Source: Pseudidiomarina andamanensis (lineage in GTDB: Bacteria > Pseudomonadota > Gammaproteobacteria > Enterobacterales > Alteromonadaceae). Taken from it: a stretch of DNA of 32,000 bases. The translations under genes were made by a program, and so were the position numbers. Of this stretch, positions 1 to 9,636 are shown one piece after another; positions within the stretch are counted from its first letter, which is position 1; every line of letters begins with the position of its first letter. The stretch covers positions 1,890,001 to 1,922,000 of the forward strand of contig NZ_CP032551.1 of assembly GCF_009734345.1 (NCBI RefSeq), in the 5' to 3' direction. The notes beneath the pieces are model-generated. The model was not told the origin of the DNA, did not search any database, and saw nothing but the letters and a program-made list of their open reading frames with translations.

Positions 1-359
1 GCGACAATATTCGTCTGCAATTACCAAGTAACGTGACGTTTGCCGTTGATAGCACGACTATTGCTTCAAGCTTTGATCCAGTGCTTGTTGATGTTGCGAA
101 GGTACTTAACCGTTATGAAAAAACCACGATGTTGGTGGAAGGTCATACCGATAGTACAGGTGACGCCAACTACAACCAACGTTTGTCAGAGAATCGCGCG
201 TTGGCTGTACGTAATCACTTGGTAGGCAATGGTGTTGACCAGCGTCGTGTGACTACTGTCGGTTATGGTGAAACCATGCCGGTAGCAGATAATAGCACTG
301 CTGATGGCCGTCAACTCAACCGCCGTGTTGAATTGCGAATCGTGCCGAACGAAGCCTAA
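1..359 (+). CDS. OmpA-family protein, C-terminal peptidoglycan-binding domain (5' end lies upstream of the window)
   Basis: Frame 3 is open from nt 3 (DNIRLQLPSNVTFAVDS...), so the GTG at 33 is internal. LVEGHTDSTGDANYNQRLSENRA and NRRVEL match the canonical OmpA/Pal/MotB C-terminal signature. Confidence 0.85.
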   Translation, partial: DNIRLQLPSNVTFAVDSTTIASSFDPVLVDVAKVLNRYEKTTMLVEGHTDSTGDANYNQRLSENRALAVRNHLVGNGVDQRRVTTVGYGETMPVADNSTADGRQLNRRVELRIVPNEA

Positions 360-380
360 TTCGAAGGTCTTCTGGTAATA

Positions 381-416
381 AAAGAAAAGCCGCTGATGAT
401 ATCAGCGGCTTTTTTG
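381..416. terminator. Bidirectional rho-independent terminator between the convergent OmpA-like and transporter genes
   Basis: Perfect 9-bp stem GCCGCTGAT (389-397) / ATCAGCGGC (401-409) with a 3-nt loop. An A-rich run lies on the 5' side and TTTTTT (410-415) on the 3' side. Confidence 0.8.
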
Positions 417-445
417 ATCGTTTTTATAAAGAGTTTAATAGTGCG

Positions 446-1594
446 TTATTCGGCTTTAGATGCTTGGTTTACCAAAAGCGCGATGGCGCCATCGCCGGTC
501 ACGTTACACGCCGTACCAAAGCTGTCTTGTGCCATATACAGCGCAATCATTAACGCAATGGCGGTTTCACCGAAGCCAAGCATTGAACCCAGTAAACCGA
601 CCGCAGACATTACCGCACCACCAGGTACGCCTGGCGCCGCCAGCATCACCACACCGAGCATGAAAATAAATGGCAGGATGGCTAAGAATGATGGAATTGC
701 TAAAGCGCTGTGCAAATACATCACCGCGATGGTGCAACTGACAATCGTAATGGTCGAGCCGGCTAAATGCGTTGTTGCACATAATGGAATCGCAAAGTTG
801 GCGACATCGTCATTCACTTTATTTGCTTTGGCGCTGCGTAAAGTCACTGGAATGGTTGCAGCGCTCGACATGGTGCCTAATGCCGTAAAGTAAGCTGGCA
901 GCATGTTCTTAATGAGCGTCACAGGGCTGATACTGGCTTTTAACCCAGCCACCGTAAACATGCTGATGATATACACCCAATGCAGTGCTACAGCGAGTAA
1001 CAAGACGATACCGAATGTTTTAAGCGTACCAAATACGGTGCCTGCGGCAGCCATTTCAGCAAATACGCCAGCAATGTAAAACGGCAATAGTGGAATGATG
1101 ACCTTACCGAGAAGTAACTCAATAATGTCTCGGCCTTGGTCTGAAATTTGTTTGAGTTGTTCTGCGCGAGTTGCGGTGATACCAAGCCCGAAAATAAACG
1201 CTAAAACAAGCGCTGTCATGATGCCAAACACGGGCGGCATGTCGAGAGTGATGAATGGCTCTAAAACCTTAGCATCGGCAGTCTGAGCGGTTTTAGCAGC
1301 GGTGGTTAACATCGGTACGACAAAACTCGCGACAAAATATGCAACGGTACCCGCCACAATGGTTGATAGGTAAGCGATACCCAAGGTGCGGCCAAGCAAT
1401 TTGCCAGAATTCTGTGGTAAACCAGCGATACCACTGGTGATAAAGAACAAAATTAATAACGGAATGGTAAAGAATAATAATTGACCGAATAGCTCTTTGA
1501 ACGTTAATAGTAGTTGGGTGACCCATTCAGGCGTATAGAGCCCAATTAATGTGCCAACGGTAATACCAATGATAAGTTTTATGATTAACCCCAT
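446..1594 (-). CDS. Dicarboxylate/amino acid:cation symporter family transporter, SstT-like
   Basis: 382-aa polytopic membrane protein. It has the family motifs GTMSSAATIPVT (HP1-like), LCATTHLAGSTITI and AQDSFGTACNVTGDGA. An AGAGAG-type SD precedes the ATG. Confidence 0.75.
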   Translation of the reverse strand: MGLIIKLIIGITVGTLIGLYTPEWVTQLLLTFKELFGQLLFFTIPLLILFFITSGIAGLPQNSGKLLGRTLGIAYLSTIVAGTVAYFVASFVVPMLTTAAKTAQTADAKVLEPFITLDMPPVFGIMTALVLAFIFGLGITATRAEQLKQISDQGRDIIELLLGKVIIPLLPFYIAGVFAEMAAAGTVFGTLKTFGIVLLLAVALHWVYIISMFTVAGLKASISPVTLIKNMLPAYFTALGTMSSAATIPVTLRSAKANKVNDDVANFAIPLCATTHLAGSTITIVSCTIAVMYLHSALAIPSFLAILPFIFMLGVVMLAAPGVPGGAVMSAVGLLGSMLGFGETAIALMIALYMAQDSFGTACNVTGDGAIALLVNQASKAE

Positions 1595-1664
1595 GGTGTT
1601 CTCTCTTTTGTGACCCTTGCGGATTTTATAGTGAGGGTAGTGTAAGGCGTTTCACCTAAATAAG

Positions 1665-1695
1665 TGAATCTAAATAGCGAGCAAGATCGTAACTT
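1665..1695 (+). promoter_or_regulatory. Candidate ECF-type promoter upstream of the sigma gene (TGAATC-N16-TCGTAA)
   Basis: It matches 2941-2971 at 20 of 31 positions with identical 16-nt spacing. The shared blocks are TGmATCTAA and ATCGTwACTT. The -10-like element ends 35 nt before the ATG at 1727. Confidence 0.4.
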
Positions 1696-1726
1696 AAGTA
1701 TTACCACAATAAAAAGGGAAATAACT

Positions 1727-2266
1727 ATGTCGTCACCACTTTCGTTGGAGAGGGAGCTTCAGCAAATTGCACTGGGTGACCGAGAAGCGTTCAAGCGCCT
1801 GTATCAGGCAACGTCCGCTAAGCTTTACTCAGTCAGTTACGCTATTGTTCGTCGCGAGAGCGCCGCCGAGGATGCTGTTCAAGACACCTTCATCAAAGTT
1901 TGGCATCGGGCGTCAGATTACAGCGTTACCAAGGGCTCAGTCATGAGCTGGCTAATTAGCATGGTGCGTTATCGGTCAATCGATTTGATGCGTAACCGTC
2001 ATAACAGCATGCAATATGAAGATACACCCGACCAGCTACCAGCTGTCGATACCTTAGATAAGTCCTTAGATTCATTGCACGAAAACCATCAACTCAAGCT
2101 ATGTATGGATGAATTGCAGCCGCAAACCCGTCACTGCCTGCAGCTTGCCTATATCAATGGCTTGAGCCATCAAGAAGTAAGCGATTACTTGAGTGAAGCG
2201 TTGGGTTCAGTGAAGAGTTGGATTCGTCGTGGCTTGGAAAATCTTAAAAGGTGCCTAAAACGATGA
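1727..2266 (+). CDS. RNA polymerase sigma factor, ECF (sigma-70 group 4) family
   Basis: Region 2 (DAVQDTFIKVWHRASDY) and region 4 HTH (LQLAYINGLSHQEVSDYLSEALGSVKSWIRRGLENLKRCL). I chose the ATG at 1727, which has a GGGA SD 7 nt upstream, over the track's GTG at 1664. This gives a 179-aa protein, the typical ECF size. Confidence 0.85.
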   Translation: MSSPLSLERELQQIALGDREAFKRLYQATSAKLYSVSYAIVRRESAAEDAVQDTFIKVWHRASDYSVTKGSVMSWLISMVRYRSIDLMRNRHNSMQYEDTPDQLPAVDTLDKSLDSLHENHQLKLCMDELQPQTRHCLQLAYINGLSHQEVSDYLSEALGSVKSWIRRGLENLKRCLKR

Positions 2267-2934
2267 GTGATAAAACTGAAATTCAACATCAATTAGCTGC
2301 GCGCTACGTTATTGGTAGCATGCGCGGTGGCGCCAGAAAACGCTTCATGCGCTTATTAATGACTACCCCTGCGCTACGCGAACATGTGACTTTTTGGGAG
2401 CAGCACCTTTATGCGCTAACGGATACAGTGCCTGAGCGCGAGGTGTCTCCGAAAGTTTGGAATCAGATCGAGCGTCGATTGGGTTGGACACAAGCTGAAC
2501 AGAGTCGCAATACATGGTGGTTGTGGGGATTCTCGGCGGCGGCGGCTTTATTACTGCTTAACTTGCTTACTTTTGTGGCGCCATTTACGCCAACGCCGCA
2601 GGCTATTGAGCGCGTGGCTGTGGTTCAAAATGATGATGCACAAACGCTGTGGCTAATAAAACAGCAGGGGCAAACGTTAATGGTAAACGCTGTTGGTAAC
2701 ATCGAGCAGAGAGCCGATGCCGATTATCAGTTGTGGATGTTACCGCAATCGGGGTCAGCGCCTATTTCGCTTGGTTTATTGCCGCAACAGGGTGAACGGG
2801 TTCTAACAATAGACACACAAATCAATTTAAATGATGTTGCAGCACTTGCTGTTAGCCGCGAGCCACTTGGTGGTTCACCACTTGATGTGCCTACGGGGCC
2901 AGTGGTTTTTGTAACCGATATTGTCATACTTTAA
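2263..2934 (+). CDS. Anti-sigma factor, RskA (anti-sigma-K) type, single-pass membrane protein
   Basis: The start shares ATGA with the sigma gene stop (2263-2266). There is one TM segment (WWLWGFSAAAALLLLNLLTFVAPF). The C-terminal extracytoplasmic domain has YQLWMLP...PISLGLL...ALAVSREPLGGSPLDVPTGPVV, typical of RskA domains. The N-terminal part has no HxxxCxxC zinc motif. Confidence 0.75.
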   Translation: MSDKTEIQHQLAARYVIGSMRGGARKRFMRLLMTTPALREHVTFWEQHLYALTDTVPEREVSPKVWNQIERRLGWTQAEQSRNTWWLWGFSAAAALLLLNLLTFVAPFTPTPQAIERVAVVQNDDAQTLWLIKQQGQTLMVNAVGNIEQRADADYQLWMLPQSGSAPISLGLLPQQGERVLTIDTQINLNDVAALAVSREPLGGSPLDVPTGPVVFVTDIVIL

Positions 2935-2940
2935 AAAAGT

Positions 2941-2971
2941 TGCATCTAATATGCTCTCTCAATCGTTACTT
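2941..2971 (+). promoter_or_regulatory. Candidate ECF-type promoter upstream of the DUF4331 gene (TGCATC-N16-TCGTTA)
   Basis: Second copy of the motif seen at 1665-1695, with the same spacing. It lies in the 100-nt gap between the anti-sigma and DUF4331 genes. Confidence 0.4.
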
Positions 2972-3028
2972 GGGTAAGACCCATAAGTTTTTCGGGGTTG
3001 GAAATCCAATTTAAACGATTGAGAGGGC
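2953..3028 (+). promoter_or_regulatory. Structured leader: a 15-bp long-range stem that pairs with the DUF4331 Shine-Dalgarno, enclosing two small hairpins
   Basis: GCTCTCTCAATCGTT (2953-2967) pairs with AACGATTGAGAGGGC (3014-3028), giving 14 Watson-Crick pairs plus one G-U. The 3' arm contains the SD GAGAGGG (3021-3027). The inner hairpins are 2968-2988 (followed by TTTTT) and 2998-3009. Confidence 0.45.
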
Positions 3029-3034
3029 ATTAAT

Positions 3035-4606
3035 ATGAACAACAAGACTTTGTTTACAACAACAATACTAGGCGTTGCCATTGCTGCCTCGACAGCATTT
3101 GCATCAAGCCACCGTGAAGCGCCGAATATTGCGCGTTTACCTACACTAGATTCAACAGACTTCTATCTATTCAATAGTTATGAATTAGGGCGAGAAGACT
3201 ACGTCACAATCATCGCCAACTATATTCCATTGCAGGATGCTTACGGTGGGCCAAACTATTTCGCCATGGATCCAGCAGCGGTATATGCATTACACATTGA
3301 TTCTGATGGCGATGCGGTTGAAGACGTGACGTTTGAATTTCGCTTTAACAACGAAATAGCTGGCGTGACGTTGCCGGTTGGCCCTGACGCGATTAACGTG
3401 AGTGTACCGCTTAAACATGTTGGTGGCATTGCTGCGGGCAACAACGCGACGTTAAATTACAACGAGACATACAGTTTAGCGGTGGTTTCAGGGGCACAAA
3501 GAAGTGGTTCAAGCGCCGCTGTTACTGGTGTTAATGGCGAAACAGCGTTTGTTAAACCCTATGCTTATGTTGGTGAAAAAACCTTTGGTTCGACTGCAGA
3601 CTATGAAGCTTATGCGAACCAATACATCTATGACATTTCAATACCAAACTGCAGTGCGCCAGGGCGCGTGTTCGTGGGTCAACGCAAAGACTCCTTCACG
3701 GTAAATCTTGGTGAAACCTTCGATTTAGTGAACTATGTTCCTGTTGAAGGAGATAGTGCACCGGGTGCTGGCGATGGTGGCGGCTTCCCTGGAGGTATTA
3801 CGCAGTCGATTAACAATGACGATTTGAACGATAAGAATACCAATACGATTGCACTGGAAGTACCGAAGTCGTGTTTAGTTGGCAATGGTAACGGTGTTAT
3901 TGGTGCTTGGACAACAGCAAGTTTACCGCAGGCACGAATCTTGAATCCGAATGCCGTGGCGAGCAAACCAGAAGTTAATGGTGGTGCATTAGTGCAAGTA
4001 TCGCGACTAGGCTCACCGCTTGTGAATGAATTGGTAATTGGTATTGATGATAAAGATCGGTTCTCATCAGCACACCCTTCAGCTGATGGACAGTTTGCAA
4101 CCTACGTAACTCACCCGACATTGCCGGTGATATTGGATATTTTATTCCGCGATGCCGTTAATGCCACGTTGGGAACCAATTTTGAAACAATTGCACCGAC
4201 TAATTATCCACGGACCGACTTGGTAGCGGCTTTTTTAACGGGGTTTGCGGGGGTTAATCAGCAAGCGACCGTGACCGCATCTGAAATGCTACGTCTGAAT
4301 ACAGCGATACCTGCCACACCAGCCGATTTACAATCGAACTTTGGTGTAGCTGGTAATGATTTAGCTGGCTTCCCGAATGGACGTCGCCCCGGTGATGACG
4401 TGGTCGATATCGCATTACGGGTTGTGATGGGTGCGCTTTGTCATGACATTCCAGTGAACGGTCAGCCTACTAACCTAGGTTTCTGTGAGCCAGCTGATGC
4501 AAATGTTGGTACGGCACCATTTACTGACGGTGCGCCGTTAGATAGCAGTTTCTTTAATACCAGCTTCCCTTACTTGCTAGCGCCGCTCGCTGGTTCACCG
4601 CAATAA
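3035..4606 (+). CDS. DUF4331 domain-containing exported protein
   Basis: Sec signal peptide with AFA|SSHREAP. The SSHREAP mature N-terminus and the C-terminal GFPNGRRPGDDVVD (4367-4408) are the hallmarks I recognise for DUF4331. The SD GAGAGGG lies 7 nt upstream. Confidence 0.75.
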   Translation: MNNKTLFTTTILGVAIAASTAFASSHREAPNIARLPTLDSTDFYLFNSYELGREDYVTIIANYIPLQDAYGGPNYFAMDPAAVYALHIDSDGDAVEDVTFEFRFNNEIAGVTLPVGPDAINVSVPLKHVGGIAAGNNATLNYNETYSLAVVSGAQRSGSSAAVTGVNGETAFVKPYAYVGEKTFGSTADYEAYANQYIYDISIPNCSAPGRVFVGQRKDSFTVNLGETFDLVNYVPVEGDSAPGAGDGGGFPGGITQSINNDDLNDKNTNTIALEVPKSCLVGNGNGVIGAWTTASLPQARILNPNAVASKPEVNGGALVQVSRLGSPLVNELVIGIDDKDRFSSAHPSADGQFATYVTHPTLPVILDILFRDAVNATLGTNFETIAPTNYPRTDLVAAFLTGFAGVNQQATVTASEMLRLNTAIPATPADLQSNFGVAGNDLAGFPNGRRPGDDVVDIALRVVMGALCHDIPVNGQPTNLGFCEPADANVGTAPFTDGAPLDSSFFNTSFPYLLAPLAGSPQ

Positions 4607-4617
4607 GGAGATTTGTC

Positions 4618-5127
4618 ATGAAAGCAATGATGATAAAAGTAGCTACTATTGTTGGTTTAAGTGTTGGTATGTCGGGTTGCTTCGATTCTGACGCAAACAT
4701 AAATACCGCGCCAGAGGCGATTTCTACGCGCATTACTACATCAACTGAAACACCGGTGATGGGACAATTATCTGCAGCAGATAGTGAAGAAGGCGAATTG
4801 ATTTTTTCACTTGATGGAGAGCCAAGCGAAGGAATGGTGACAGTCGCCAGCGATGGTAGTTTTACTTACACACCGCGAGCGGAATTCGTCGGGAGTGACT
4901 CATTCACGTTTCGTGTTTCAGATGGTCAGTTTTCATCTCGAGGAAGTGTTTCGATTACCGTTGAAGAGTTGGTTGTGTCGTTTCGTACTGCGGTACGAGC
5001 AGCGTTTGACCAGTCAACACAGGCGCAGCCAATTTCGGTAAACGGACGTTCGTATCAGCAAGATGTTACAACTACCGCAGAGTTTGACGACCTTATTGCT
5101 GCTGGTGAGGTTTCAGGAAATGACTAG
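4618..5127 (+). CDS. Lipoprotein with a single cadherin-like/VCBS-type Ig-fold domain
   Basis: AAGGAG SD. Signal peptide with lipobox GMSG-C. The segment NTAPEAIS...DGSFTYTPRAEFVGSDSFTFRVSDGQ...SITV has the pattern of adhesin-type cadherin-like repeats. Confidence 0.6.
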   Translation: MKAMMIKVATIVGLSVGMSGCFDSDANINTAPEAISTRITTSTETPVMGQLSAADSEEGELIFSLDGEPSEGMVTVASDGSFTYTPRAEFVGSDSFTFRVSDGQFSSRGSVSITVEELVVSFRTAVRAAFDQSTQAQPISVNGRSYQQDVTTTAEFDDLIAAGEVSGND

Positions 5128-6115
5128 AGTTACCAAGCGATCACCTTTCCTCATGGTGGTGTTGGTGCTGGGCAGCGGCGTTGTCGCCGCAGCCCCTTTC
5201 TCTGATGCGAAACACTACGCCATGTTGGTGCAGGAAGGAAAGCATGAAGCAACGCATTCGTTTCACCAAGATGCCGAAGTAATATGGCGACGAAATCAGT
5301 CGCTCTTGGTTGATATGGAGCCATTACAACAAGCTCAGTGGTATCTAGCGCGAGCGGATTTCCTACAATTTGAGCACCGCTTTGAAGAAGCGCTGCAAGC
5401 TTTAGATAAAGTTGAGAAAACCGGTTTTCTAGTAAGCAACGCATTGCTTATACGGGCTCGCATTTCATTGACTATTGGTGCGCTTGAAGACGCTCGTATG
5501 GCCTGTCAAAACCTTCGGGTATTGGTTCCGGTTGATACTTGGGCGACCTGCTTATTGGAAGTTGAAGGACGCAGCGGTGAACTTCCGCAATCGTATCAAG
5601 CATTAAAACGCATAGCGGCTCGAAATATTGATATGTCAGATGAAGTATCAGCATGGCGTTTTCAAATACTTGCCGAACAAGCACAGCTGTTGGGGTATTA
5701 CAACGAAGCATTGCAATGGTTAGATAGCGCTAACTACGCAGCTCAACCGGTTGTCGCTCAGAAACAAATACTCGATATTTGGTTTAAACAGAATAGACCT
5801 GAAGTGGCTTCAGATGTTATGCCTCGTTGTCCAGAGCCCGACAGTCTGTTTCCCGATAGTCTTATCGTTCGTTTTGCTCGTGCAGAACTGGAAAGTAGCA
5901 GCCAGTTGACCTGCTGGCGTTCATTAGCATCTGAACGTATTGAAATTAGGGAATTACGCCACGACCGTTTGCACACCGCTGATATTGCTTACTATCACAC
6001 CTATGTGAGTGGCAATGCGAAAGCGGCGGTCTATTGGGCTGAGTTAACGGTTGCAGTTGCTCGAGAGCCTTTTGATTATATGCTGCTAGAAGCAGCGCAG
6101 GAGTTGAGACCTTGA
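5120..6115 (+). CDS. TPR-like helical-repeat protein with N-terminal signal peptide or anchor
   Basis: I chose the ATG at 5120 (MTRVTKRSPFLMVVLVLGSGVVAAAPF) with a GGTGAGG SD upstream. The track's earlier start lies inside the preceding gene. The rest is Leu/Ala/Glu-rich helical repeat sequence. Confidence 0.55.
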   Translation: MTRVTKRSPFLMVVLVLGSGVVAAAPFSDAKHYAMLVQEGKHEATHSFHQDAEVIWRRNQSLLVDMEPLQQAQWYLARADFLQFEHRFEEALQALDKVEKTGFLVSNALLIRARISLTIGALEDARMACQNLRVLVPVDTWATCLLEVEGRSGELPQSYQALKRIAARNIDMSDEVSAWRFQILAEQAQLLGYYNEALQWLDSANYAAQPVVAQKQILDIWFKQNRPEVASDVMPRCPEPDSLFPDSLIVRFARAELESSSQLTCWRSLASERIEIRELRHDRLHTADIAYYHTYVSGNAKAAVYWAELTVAVAREPFDYMLLEAAQELRP

Positions 6116-6585
6116 AAACAAAATTAAATCTCTTACTGCTTTTAGTGATAATGGGTGTGTCTGGGTCGGCATTGGCACATCGATTTAGTACCAGTTTCTT
6201 GACCATGTCGTCGGCAACAGAGGGAACACAGAGTTGGACATGGCGCATAGTTGAACATGATCTTGATACGCTAGTAAATTCGCATCATCTAACTAAGTCA
6301 GAGTCAGATGACAAGTGGTTAGACGCTATTGTGAAGCGCTTAATAAGCGTTAACGAGGGCTGTGAGGTGCAAGTAGAACAGTCGGGAAATATGCTCGAGA
6401 CTGTTTATGCAGGGCAAACGTACGTTGATTTAAATGGTCAGATTATTTGTGTAGGAGGCAGTTTGTCAGAGCTTTCTGTTGAAACGGTATTTTCGTCAAT
6501 TAGCGACCATAAGGTTGTGCTAGCGATACCGTCAAATTCAACGAAACAGGTATTGAGTTTGAGCCAGACAAACTGGAAAAAATAA
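6112..6585 (+). CDS. Small secreted protein of unknown function (predicted mature N-terminus His)
   Basis: TTG start with an AGGAG SD (6099-6103) 8 nt upstream. The start overlaps the upstream stop as TTGA. Canonical signal peptide MKTKLNLLLLLVIMGVSGSALA|HRF. The internal ATG at 6151 would lose the signal peptide. Confidence 0.55.
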   Translation: MKTKLNLLLLLVIMGVSGSALAHRFSTSFLTMSSATEGTQSWTWRIVEHDLDTLVNSHHLTKSESDDKWLDAIVKRLISVNEGCEVQVEQSGNMLETVYAGQTYVDLNGQIICVGGSLSELSVETVFSSISDHKVVLAIPSNSTKQVLSLSQTNWKK

Positions 6586-6588
6586 TGA

Positions 6589-7962
6589 TTATTTCCCAAT
6601 ACAGAAGCTGCTAAAGATTTTGCCGAGTAAATCATCCGAGGTGAATTCGCCGGTTATTTCATTAAGGTGTTGCTGGGTGAGGCGAAGTTCTTCGGCCAGT
6701 AACTCGCCGGCTAGATTCATTTCTAATTGTTCTTGACCAACCATGAGATGTTCGCGCGCGCGCTCGAGGGCATCAAGGTGACGACGACGCGCCATAAAGC
6801 TACCTTCACTGGTGGCAGTGTAGCCAACGCAATGTTTTAGGTGTTCGCGTAAAAGATCAATACCGCGGCCGGTTTTAGCGCTCAGATGCAGTACTGGAAT
6901 GCCGCCGATATCTTCAATCGTGACCGGCTCTTCATTTAAGTCCACTTTGTTGCGAATGACCGTGAATGGTAAATCGTCAGGTAGCTGTTCAAAGAACTCA
7001 GGCCAAATGTCAGCGGGGTGTACTGCGTTGGTTTCTATTGCATCCACCATAAACAACACGCGATCAGCACCGCGAATTTCGTCCCAGGCGCGCTGGATAC
7101 CAATTCGCTCAACTTCATCTGGGCTTTCTCGGAGTCCGGCGGTGTCAATGATATGTAACGGCATACCATCAATTTGGATATGTTCGCGCAACACGTCACG
7201 AGTGGTACCGGCTATGGCGGTCACGATGGCTGATTCTCGGCCTGCTAACGCATTTAACAGTGATGATTTACCGGCATTTGGTCGACCGGCAATCACAACT
7301 TTCATGCCTTCGCGCAACAGCGTGCCTTGTTTTGCTTGTACCATGACCTGTTGTAGGCGGTCGATGATGCCTTCAAGATCAGTGGCGACTTTGCCGTCGC
7401 TAAGAAAATCAATTTCTTCATCCGGGAAGTCAATCGCAGCCTCAACGTACATACGCAGATGAATCACTTGATCAACAAGTTGGTCTATCTCGTGTGAGAA
7501 TCCGCCCTGTAGGCTTTGTAGGGCGGCTTTGGCTGCTTGTTCTGAAGTCGTATCGATGAGATCGGCGATGGCTTCCGCTTGCGTTAAATCAAGCTTGTCG
7601 TTCAGAAACGCACGCTCGCTGAATTCGCCGGGACGAGCGGGGCGTACATCGGGGAAATCCAGAATGGCTTTAATGATCATGTCAATGAGTACAGGGCCGC
7701 CGTGACCTTGTAGTTCAAGTACATCTTCACCAGTAAACGAATTTGGACCTTGGAAAAATAGTGCAATGCCCTCGTCGAGCACAGCACCATGAAGGTCTTT
7801 AAACGGCAGGTATTCGGCTTTGCGCGGGGCTGGGCAGTAACCTAGCATGCGCTCGGCGACACTGCGTGCCGCCGGCCCACTAACTCGGACGATGCCAACA
7901 CCACCACGCCCTGGAGGCGTGGCTTGTGCGACGATCGTGTCGTTCGTTAGCTCAAAGTCCAT
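6589..7962 (-). CDS. mnmE: tRNA modification GTPase MnmE (TrmE)
   Basis: G-domain motifs GRPNAGKSS and DTAG, and the C-terminal CIGK tetrapeptide diagnostic of MnmE. Conserved position downstream of yidC. Confidence 0.95.
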
Positions 7963-7965
7963 CGC

Positions 7966-9636
7966 TTATTTCTTCTTGCGACGTTCCATCATGCCTTTCT
8001 TTTCAAGGCCACGATAGATCCACTGCATCTGACCAATGGTAATTAAGTTACTGCTCAACCAGTACAGTACCAGACCTGCAGGGAACCATAGGAAGAATAC
8101 GGTAAAGATAACAGGCATGTATTGCAGTAATTTTTGTTGCATCGGGTCGGTAGCAGGAGTTGGTTGTAACTTCTGCATAATGAACATCGATGCACCCATT
8201 AAAATAGGCAGAATGTAGTAAGGGTCTTTCGCAGACAAATCGTTAATCCAGAGGAACAACGGTGCATGACGAAGCTCTACGCTTTCTAAAAGTACCCAGT
8301 ACAAGGCCAAGAAAATAGGCAACTGAAGAAGCATCGGTAAACAACCACCCAGTGGGTTTACTTTCTCTTCTTTGTACATTTTCATCATGGCTTGTGACAT
8401 TTTCTGACGGTCGTCGCCATAGCGTTCACGAAGCGCTTGCATTTTTGGCTGAATCATCCGCATTTTCGCCATGGACACGTACTGTGCTTTGGTCAACGGA
8501 TAGAGCAACGCTTTAATGATGATGGTGATGGCGATAATCGACAGACCCCAGTTAATGAGGACGCTTTGTACTAACTGAAGCAATTTGAAGATTGGTTGCG
8601 CAAGCCACCACAAGAAGCCGTAATCAACGGTTAAGTTTAAGTCTTCAGCAACCATTGCCATAGCATCTTGATCTTTTGGACCAACAAACAGTGTTGAACG
8701 TAGTTGTGCTTCAGCGCCTGGTGCTACCGTCGCAGTTGGGTAAAGTACCCCCATAATCGCTTGGTCACCACCAACAATGCGCGAGAATAGTTGTTTAGTG
8801 CCTTCGCCTCGTGGAATCCACGCTGAAACAAAATAGTGTTCAAGCATAGCCACCCAGCCCTTTTGGGTTTCGCGGCTTAGGCGTTGGTCGCGCATATCGT
8901 CAAATGCGTATTTTTCGTAACGGTCTTCATCCCATGAGTAGGCACCACCTTTATAGGTTGGCATCATCATGTTGCCCGAGCCTTCAGTCATGATTTGCTT
9001 AAGTTGGGCATAAAACTGAACTTGCTTATGGCTGCCTGTCGCGTTGCGAATGGTATAAACCACGTCTATGGCGTAAGAACCTTTTGAGAAGATGAAGGTT
9101 TTAGTTATTTGGCTACCATCTTCAAGCGTGTAGTGAAGAGGTACTTCAAGCTTATCACCGGTTAATTGATAATCAGTTTGTTCTACGTGGAACACTGGGC
9201 GGCCTTGCGCTGAGTCTGTTCCATCGGCGCCAACAAGGCCTGATTGAGCAATGTAGAGTTGGTTAGAATTTGCGTGCAACAACTCAAATCGCTCTTCTGA
9301 GTCTTGAGTGCGGGCAAATTGAAGAAGTTGAGCGTTAACAACATCACCGCCGTGGGTGTCGATAACCACATCAAGTACGTCAGTTTTCACCTGCACGCGT
9401 GGGTTATTCGATGCGTTGGTTGTAGCTGGCAAACCACTGTCGGTAGATTCTGGAACCGAGCTATCAGTAGCAGCTGGAGCCATGCGTGCTTCAGGCACAC
9501 CGGAATCTGTCGATTGAGTTTGTTGGGTTTGCGCCGCTTTTTGTGTACCCGGTGCAGTATCAATAAGCCAATTTTGGTAGAGGAAAAAGCTCACTACCAA
9601 GAAAGCGATAAACAAGATAGAACGTGGCGAATTCAT
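7966..9636 (-). CDS. yidC: Membrane protein insertase YidC
   Basis: 556 aa with an N-terminal TM segment, a large periplasmic domain, and a conserved C-terminal core ([44 protein letters not shown]). rnpA-yidD-yidC synteny. Confidence 0.95.

Follow-up and report, generated by a model that had tools for sequence, protein, structure and literature searches.

The present study analyzes a six-gene cluster in a 32,000-nucleotide (nt) stretch of the genome of Pseudidiomarina andamanensis (contig NZ_CP032551.1, positions 1,890,001 to 1,922,000 of the forward strand), referred to here as the window and numbered from its first letter. Six open reading frames (ORFs) on the plus strand are flanked by a gene for an SDF-family transporter (446-1594, minus strand) and by mnmE (6589-7962, minus strand). 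In order they encode a SigK-like extracytoplasmic function (ECF) sigma factor of the ECF18/19 type (1727-2266, 179 amino acids, aa), an RskA-type single-pass anti-sigma factor (2263-2934, 223 aa), a DUF4331 protein with a Sec signal peptide (3035-4606, 523 aa), a lipoprotein with a Big_9/cadherin-like domain and a conserved acidic C-terminal tail (4618-5127, 169 aa), an exported or anchored protein of the tetratricopeptide repeat (TPR) family (5120-6115, 331 aa), and a stand-alone periplasmic domain of the His1 kind described below (6112-6585, 157 aa). Independent gene calls at a public locus identical to this one (GCA_031624335.1) agree on all six products, with lengths of 179, 223, 523, 169, 331 and 157 aa. 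The genes are closely packed. The stop of the sigma gene and the start of the anti-sigma gene overlap in ATGA (2263-2266), the DUF4331 gene is separated from the ATG of the lipoprotein gene at 4618 by a spacer of 11 nt (4607-4617) that includes GGAG, the lipoprotein and TPR genes overlap in ATGACTAG (5120-5127), and the TPR gene stop shares TTGA (6112-6115) with the TTG start of the last gene. An earlier note on this DNA, made from the letters alone, had described the six co-directional genes between a transporter gene and mnmE, the overlapping junctions and the 11-nt gap, and the sequence bears out each of these. The nearest named relatives of the DUF4331 protein occur in Pseudidiomarina, Alishewanella, and Rheinheimera. 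Taken together, the evidence tips the balance modestly toward the cluster being a sigma-controlled periplasmic module for capture and relay of a transition metal (Cu(II) or Ni(II) being the likeliest), with both transporters lost from the locus here.

Several patterns can be identified from conservation of the cluster in other genomes. An alignment of 33 diverse DUF4331 proteins (A1) was used to fetch 80 loci, one genome per species, which were annotated with profiles from the window proteins and from a Pseudoalteromonas HupE_UreJ_2 protein, and gene content was counted on the 60 loci that had 5 kb or more of flanking sequence on each side. The TPR gene was found in 45 of the 60 DUF4331 loci, which upholds the statement in the earlier note that a TPR gene often follows DUF4331, as part of a conserved unit. 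A gene for a HupE_UreJ_2 protein of 370–430 aa was present in 40 of the 60 and a short form in three more, so that DUF4331, the TPR gene and one or other form of HupE_UreJ_2 came together in 42/60 loci (70%). The pair of sigma and RskA genes lay within 8 kb of DUF4331 in 28/60 (47%). The neighbourhood survey that had been proposed thus did find co-occurrence, and because the arrangement recurs across phyla it is far beyond chance. The core of the system is four genes, encoding DUF4331, the lipoprotein, the TPR protein and a His1-HupE/UreJ-2 protein.

Clustering of the remaining neighbours yielded one dominant family, a TonB-dependent receptor found inside or flanking the operon in 20 of the 80 loci. 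Its position varied among lineages. In Duganella and Massilia it directly precedes DUF4331, in Undibacterium it separates DUF4331 from the TPR gene, and in Acinetobacter it comes after the TPR gene. It lies downstream of the permease in Pseudoduganella and Nitrospira and behind the short His1 gene in Rheinheimera and two metagenome-assembled genomes (MAGs), and in Kangiella it is upstream and divergent. Where the usual permease was absent, DUF4331 adjoined a canonical HupE_UreJ protein in a sphingomonad (3.9e-57), a protein with a NicO nickel-transporter domain in a deltaproteobacterial MAG, and an SBP_bac_5 binding protein or a TonB-dependent receptor in other loci. The four non-regulatory products had been described previously as an entirely extracytoplasmic four-protein system; this holds for the clade to which the window belongs, whereas the usual version of the system adds a permease in the inner membrane and, in many cases, a TonB-dependent receptor.

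The sigma factor matched Sigma70_r2 (PF04542, 1.2e-13) and Sigma70_r4_2 (PF08281, 2.1e-11) in Pfam, with no match to region 3. Its best match in the PDB was Mycobacterium tuberculosis SigK (4NQW, 1.3e-23), and in that alignment its C126 and C176 align with both SigK cysteines (C133/C183). The conserved cysteine pair of SigK has been described (PMC7509140), and the cysteine pair and the partnership with RskA are the defining marks of ECF18/19. Scores lay below the cut-offs of the NCBIfam SigK-type models (151 bits with a cut-off of 261, and 135.5 bits with a cut-off of 226 for SigK NF007228), and the protein is related to the curated models of that type without being an equivalog of any. The anti-sigma factor matched RskA_C (PF10099) over residues 91-214 (1.7e-23, 83.8 bits, cut-off 29.4) and reached 94.9 bits (6.7e-27) with NCBIfam NF052375, for which the cut-off is 100. 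It has a single hydrophobic stretch (WWLWGFSAAAALLLLNLLTFVAPF) and no cysteine at all, and therefore lacks the HxxxCxxC zinc motif; sequence and profile searches of the PDB with this protein gave no match. The earlier assignment of sigma regions 2 and 4, of an RskA-type anti-sigma factor with one transmembrane segment and no HxxxCxxC, and of DUF4331 is thereby confirmed. The mechanically called sigma ORF starts at GTG 1664, and the ATG at 1727, preceded by AAAAGGGAAATAACT, gives the 179 aa of the public gene calls. The latter is most likely the true start because an ECF-type promoter occupies 1665-1691.

This promoter is one of two near-identical elements. The intergenic regions of the sigma gene and of DUF4331 have in common TG(A/C)ATCTAA-N-ATCGT(A/T)A, and a pattern scan places ECF18-type promoter motifs on the plus strand upstream of the sigma gene (TGAATC-N16-TCGTA, 1665-1691) and upstream of DUF4331 (TGCATC-N16-TCGTT, 2941-2967). 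The pattern TG[AC]ATC-N16-18-CGT[AT] has exactly two matches on both strands of the 32 kb window (64 kb), with a mean of 0.8 in shuffled sequence, and the two are those just named. With the final [AT] position omitted, the motif occurred upstream of DUF4331 in 26/29 loci where a sigma/RskA pair is adjacent and in 21/48 loci with no sigma gene nearby, the background being 0.014 per 285-nt region. The sigma-linked loci that carry it belong to Alteromonadales, Marinobacter, Oxalobacteraceae, and Acidovorax (Gamma- and Betaproteobacteria) and to Nitrospira, and the sigma genes of many related loci also have the motif upstream. The locus consensus, TGCATCC / CGTAT, equals the promoter consensus reported for ECF18, GCATCC / CGTAT (PMC13492112 Table 4, taken from ECF Hub). 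From these sequence patterns we predict with high confidence that the sigma factor directly controls DUF4331 and its coupled genes, its dedicated target, and that it also controls its own gene, as the idea of a sigma-controlled cluster had anticipated. The system resembles the SigK-RskA pairs of M. tuberculosis (SigK) and Pseudomonas putida (RpoT) in its sigma2/sigma4 organization, in an RskA_C anti-sigma factor encoded at +1 and in the ECF18 promoter consensus; it differs in its targets, which are the DUF4331 operon here and fasciclin-type MPT70/83 (SigK) or the solvent pump TtgGHI (RpoT) there. ECF18/19 are not mentioned in a 2019 review of metal-responsive ECF sigma factors, and no metal connection has been described for the group.

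A feature that may also be regulatory lies in the leader of DUF4331, where the arms of a 17-nt inverted repeat (2951-2967 and 3014-3030, plus strand, 94% complementary) would bring the promoter's -10 region into base pairing with the Shine-Dalgarno sequence of the gene. The repeat is kept in three related loci (L005, L006, L007), with compensatory changes in 3/15 stem pairs, and is absent from more distant loci. Transcripts reading through from rskA would hold both arms, and in these the ribosome-binding site of DUF4331 would be masked; transcripts from the ECF promoter would start past the 5′ arm, leaving the site unmasked. Judging from this arrangement, masking of that site by the hairpin might be confined to read-through transcripts. 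A separate small hairpin, TGGGTAAGACCCA followed by TAAGTTTTTC, is located at 2971-2992, just past the predicted -10 and 37 nt after the stop codon of rskA. Transcription of sigma-rskA might be weakly terminated there, in a region where the number of predicted terminators is at chance level.

The last gene of the cluster suggests a link to metals. Its product, of 157 aa, can be aligned with residues 1-175 of a HupE_UreJ_2 protein of 370 aa from Pseudoalteromonas distincta (locus L004; 24% identity, E 3e-7), a stretch that is exactly the periplasmic part before the first membrane helix. The window protein stops at residue 157 and is without the HupE/UreJ-2 membrane domain (PF13795), to which its orthologues are fused in 40/60 loci. 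Cleavage of the signal peptide is predicted between alanine and histidine (SALA|HRF), as it is in 58/58 homologous N-domains, whether fused or free, and since every one of these N-domains has Ala-His where the signal peptide ends, the mature protein would begin with histidine (His1). This is the arrangement of the "anglerases" of Franco Cairo et al. (Nat Commun 2025, PMC12537917), a name given to the N-domain in an architecture of signal peptide, His1, beta-sandwich of ~170 aa, linker near residue 176, and HupE/UreJ-2. In that work RbAng-1a (PDB 9GCE) was found to hold metal by a mono-histidine brace, with dissociation constants of 74 nM for Cu2+ and 220 nM for Ni2+, and stand-alone DUF6702 proteins were found to bind Ni2+, Co2+, and Cu2+ (PaDUF6702: Ni2+ 5.6 pM, Co2+ and Cu2+ ~3 nM). 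Orthologues of the last gene have the same signal peptide, His1, ~170-aa periplasmic domain, linker near 175 and PF13795; the window protein differs in being separate, 157 aa long and without a permease. The permease domain in the loci is homologous to the membrane domain of RbAng-1a, the sequence of which was taken from the supplement of PMC12537917 (31% identity, E 5e-11). The cluster had been given an unknown role, and those words still fit DUF4331's own activity. They no longer fit the fourth exported protein, which is a stand-alone His1 domain of a kind that binds Cu or Ni in its fused type (PMC12537917).

Comparison with the stand-alone DUF6702 proteins (PF20420) gave a more distant relationship. 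Both are small secreted proteins starting with His1, and window His27-Asp28 stand at the place of DUF6702 His28-Asp29; unlike DUF6702, the window family does not conserve the third ligand, His32, and DUF6702 genes adjoin M1 peptidases, outside the DUF4331 operon. A family profile of the His1 N-domain aligned with a DUF6702 protein at an hhalign probability of 76% (E 2.2e-5, 135 columns from His1), and weak PF20420 matches occurred in 16/43 family members (best E 0.0017). The window family is remotely related to DUF6702, not a member of it. A PDB search with the 157-aa protein gave no match, and one with its family profile gave nothing beyond EF-hand loops. An EF-hand-like loop (LDxNxDGxLTWxE) occurs in the His1 domain of most fused forms, e.g. 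at L004:11256-11690 and L037:11072-11488. Pfam EF-hand matches were obtained for 14/43 N-domains, and the profile weakly matches calmodulin-like PDB chains; in the short protein of the window this loop is deleted. Recent truncation private to this genome was considered as the origin of the last gene and rejected, the short form being kept in Pseudidiomarina planktonica, Alishewanella, Rheinheimera, and MAGs. In the window and its closest relatives the short gene directly abuts mnmE.

The DUF4331 gene heads the operon and is the best conserved of its genes, and its product matches PF14224 over the full length of the model (1-421 of 421, 5.3e-143, 477.7 bits, cut-off 27). The family comprises 4321 clusters at 50% identity and ranges over Proteobacteria, Nitrospira, Myxococcota, and Acidobacteria-like MAGs. 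In the window protein the predicted signal peptide is followed immediately by an H-R-E motif (AFA|SSHREAP). Among 184 relatives with an intact N-terminus, X-X-His follows an AxA signal-peptidase site in 182, Ser-Ser-His being found in 173 and alanine at -1 in 165. An N-terminus of the form NH2-X-X-His is the classical amino-terminal Cu(II)- and Ni(II)-binding (ATCUN) site, and the conservation of this sequence suggests that DUF4331 probably binds Cu(II)/Ni(II) through its X-X-His N-terminus. An AlphaFold2 model built from 109 homologues (mean predicted local distance difference test, pLDDT, 75.8; predicted template modelling score 0.79) has a beta-rich N-terminal part (~35-320) and a helical C-terminal part. 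The stretches of low confidence, 19-34, 323-344, and 447-459, are the most conserved motifs, SSHREAP, SRLGxPLVNE, and PNGRRPGDDVVD, as would be expected if these segments were organized by a ligand missing from the model. Two Asp-rich motifs are nearly invariant in the family, DSDGDAVED at residues 89-97 (3299-3325) and PNGRRPGDDVVD at 447-458 (4373-4408). They resemble calcium-binding loops of the DxDxDG type, and from this resemblance DUF4331 may bind Ca2+ or another hard cation, beside or instead of Cu/Ni. Paired DUF4331 genes are present in some genomes, as divergent identical copies in one (L061:4946-6502 and 7941-9497) and as tandem paralogues on both sides of the lipoprotein gene in another (L026:5513-7144 and 7839-9599).

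An alternative explanation could be that DUF4331 is itself a periplasmic metalloenzyme, with the other three proteins as factors for its maturation or metal insertion and with the His1 domain and permease supplying the cofactor, in the manner of copper-enzyme chaperones. Consistent with this are its size of ~500 aa in two domains, its dozens of invariant polar residues, including PNGRRPGDDVVD and the N-terminal H-R-E, and its place as first and best conserved gene, as well as the lack of a fold match to known binding proteins. No relative was found in the PDB by sequence or profile, and Foldseek detected no PDB structure similar to the model at E <= 0.001; the weak Ig-like hits that remained, FtrA/P19 among them, are noise. 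AlphaFold and Foldseek, suggested previously for all the exported proteins, thus yielded a DUF4331 model without a fold match, while the single-sequence model of the 157-aa protein was unusable (pLDDT 41). However, neither sequence, profile nor Foldseek gave any resemblance to a catalytic family, there were no recurring neighbour genes related to a substrate, and the link to an outer-membrane receptor in 20/80 loci is more easily explained by transport. We therefore regard the enzyme explanation as decidedly unlikely and retain metal capture and relay.

The remaining two exported proteins are the lipoprotein and the TPR protein. The window lipoprotein matched Big_9 (4.3e-15) and Cadherin_5 (2e-11) in Pfam and has the lipobox VGMSG-C, positional equivalents having L-[AT]-[AG]-C, so that lipidation is predicted in both. 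What appears in other lineages as a "gap" of 250–350 bp holds an ORF for a lipoprotein of 70–105 aa in 24/25 loci. BLASTP of the window lipoprotein with the small lipoprotein of Marinobacter matched the signal peptide and lipobox alone, and the acidic C-terminal tails of the window and small lipoproteins are remotely homologous by profile comparison (hhalign probability 74%, E 2.9e-5). The cadherin/Big_9 domain is, on this sequence comparison, a lineage-specific insertion into a small lipoprotein. It was considered as a defining mark of the system and rejected, being confined to an Alteromonadales-like branch. The TPR protein of the window had no significant Pfam match of its own (ANAPC3, E 0.019) and no match in a PDB search with the protein alone. 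Its TPR identity is clear at the family level, where 24 of 30 homologues match TPR_19 (best 1.1e-11) and the family profile matches consensus-TPR structures (7e-14); with its Pseudoalteromonas orthologue the window protein shares 29% identity (E 5e-28). Of the Pfam domains expected beforehand for the six proteins, then, Sigma70_r2/r4, RskA, DUF4331, and cadherin-like/Big_9 were all found, and TPR was recovered for the family rather than for the protein itself. Residues Q83, H86, F88, C129, C144, R280, H285, and D319 are invariant among the 30 homologues, and C129, C144, H86, and H285 could form a disulfide or a metal site.

These two proteins also bear on whether metal is involved at all. The cluster could be an envelope module without a metal function, for example in adhesion or handling of surface proteins, with metal transporters as incidental neighbours. 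Big_9/cadherin-like domains are common in adhesins, TPR proteins often aid assembly of envelope proteins, and two of the TPR-protein homologues weakly match TPR_Slam. But the Big_9 domain is found only in the Alteromonadales-like branch, its place being taken elsewhere by the 70–105 aa lipoprotein without Big_9, and linkage to three metal-permease families together with His1 in 58/58 N-domains is not incidental. A non-metal module consequently seems very improbable.

Patterns detected are instead consistent with capture and relay of a metal, and a mechanism may be proposed. The SigK-like sigma factor would be held by the RskA-type membrane anti-sigma factor until its release, whereupon it would transcribe its own gene and the translationally coupled four-gene operon from the two promoters. 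All four products would leave the cytoplasm, DUF4331 as a soluble periplasmic protein together with the lipoprotein, the TPR protein and the His1 protein. The His1 domain would bind metal via its N-terminal amine and imidazole, DUF4331 would probably do so via its X-X-His N-terminus, and the lipoprotein and TPR protein would serve as a scaffold. In its complete form the system would link a TonB-dependent outer-membrane receptor to a HupE/UreJ-2 inner-membrane permease; in the clade of the window the periplasmic binding part would work with transporters encoded elsewhere or act as a metal buffer. The sequences themselves show the gene content, its conservation, the promoter motif and the homology between the last gene and the N-domain of the permease. 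Metal binding, the identity of the metal (Cu or Ni, or perhaps Co or Fe), the direction of transport and the inducing signal are what we infer here from the comparative evidence. A more specific version would make DUF4331 the founder of a new and very widespread class of periplasmic metalloproteins that hold Cu(II)/Ni(II) by a Ser-Ser-His N-terminus left by signal peptidase, with relay from receptor to DUF4331, lipoprotein and TPR protein and on to the anglerase-HupE/UreJ-2 permease, the operon as the ancestral dedicated regulon of ECF18 sigma factors in proteobacteria, and in the window clade a hairpin restricting translation to sigma-initiated transcripts. All of these parts together are advanced tentatively, and we lean against the whole being correct.

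The closest known systems also include HupE/UreJ Ni/Co permeases and TonB uptake loci (e.g. DUF4198 operons with a TonB receptor and NikR), which likewise combine a secondary metal permease, a periplasmic His1 protein and an outer-membrane receptor. Unlike TonB loci for Ni, Co or Cu uptake, the DUF4331 operon is under an ECF sigma factor and not NikR, Fur or Zur, those loci have no counterpart of DUF4331, the lipoprotein or the TPR protein, and the transporters are absent from the window locus. The direction of metal flow could also be the opposite, the proteins serving defence or buffering: excess periplasmic metal would activate the sigma factor, as Ni/Co does CnrH, the four proteins would sequester the metal, and HupE/UreJ-2 and the receptor would adjust fluxes elsewhere. 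Control of this kind, by an ECF sigma factor with an anti-sigma factor in the membrane, is characteristic of responses to stress and of metal resistance (PMC6851896), the window clade has retained four binding proteins after loss of both transporters, and conserved acidic residues are abundant in DUF4331. Against defence, the recurrent partners are of importer type (TonB-dependent receptor, HupE/UreJ, NicO, SBP_bac_5), not RND, CDF or P-type efflux systems, and His1-HupE/UreJ-2 proteins are interpreted as uptake devices in PMC12537917. Defence or buffering is accordingly unlikely in our estimate, and capture and relay is preferred.

Capture and relay has its own difficulties, which must be set beside the evidence for it. 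The 157-aa protein of the window gives no Pfam match, and no similarity could be detected between the His1 N-domain and RbAng-1a, the anglerase with a crystal structure (hhalign with family alignment A3, probability 0.2%); the A3 profile found no RbAng-1a (9GCE) chain in the PDB. Given this dissimilarity, metal binding here is extrapolated from architecture and from the weak link to DUF6702. In DUF4331 the near-invariant Ser-Ser ahead of the histidine is stricter than an ATCUN site needs, and the size of the protein, ~500 aa, together with its many invariant Asp, Arg, Asn, and Tyr residues, would fit an enzyme no less than a binding protein. The periplasmic domain of RskA contains neither His nor Cys and thus gives no sign of sensing metal directly, and ECF control is unusual for metal import, FecI-type systems excepted. 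The window locus has neither permease nor receptor, and "uptake" cannot be the complete function here. Finally, a search of a literature library for DUF4331, PF14224, and IPR025566 found no paper and no experiment on a DUF4331 protein, in agreement with the earlier note's remark that the family has no experimentally assigned function.

The finding nevertheless has several implications. Comparative evidence now ties DUF4331, a large family without a paper, structure or fold relative, to a specific pathway. The evidence indicates that the operon is widespread and undescribed, and that it combines known kinds of system, ECF-controlled envelope systems and His1/HupE-UreJ-2 metal capture, around an uncharacterized central protein. 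DUF4331 has a count of 2 in the anglerase neighbourhood tables of PMC12537917, from which we take the present operon to be undescribed there. If capture and relay is correct, the "anglerase" concept, so far that of one fused protein, would widen to an envelope system of several components, neighbours of "unknown function" left unnamed by the 2025 study (PMC12537917) would be named, and a new group would join the short list of metal-linked ECF sigma factors. Should the reading of Ser-Ser-His and an ECF18 regulon also prove true, it would be the first physiological role of the ECF18 (SigK/RskA-type) group outside mycobacteria. The clade of the window, as a natural reduction with no permease and no receptor, is useful for separating periplasmic function from transport.

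Some minor observations concern the surroundings of the cluster. The rest of the window is replication-origin surroundings, with yidC, dnaA, dnaN, recF, gyrB, glyQS, fadAB, slt, trkHA, and rsmB. Rfam gave no match in 1-8000 of the window, even at E <= 1, and scans of 1500-6800 for sigma-70 promoters and intrinsic terminators gave counts at chance level. The stop of the last gene (6583-6585) and the convergent stop of mnmE (6589-6591) have 3 nt between them, leaving no space for an intergenic terminator of either gene, and the junction is likewise tight in L005-L007. About 3 kb upstream of the sigma gene, Pseudidiomarina planktonica and Alishewanella have a pair of genes for Peptidase_M1 and a DUF6702 protein, itself a His1 protein (L005:3614-4129, L006:3805-4293); the window has at this place the SDF transporter gene and an OmpA-like gene instead.

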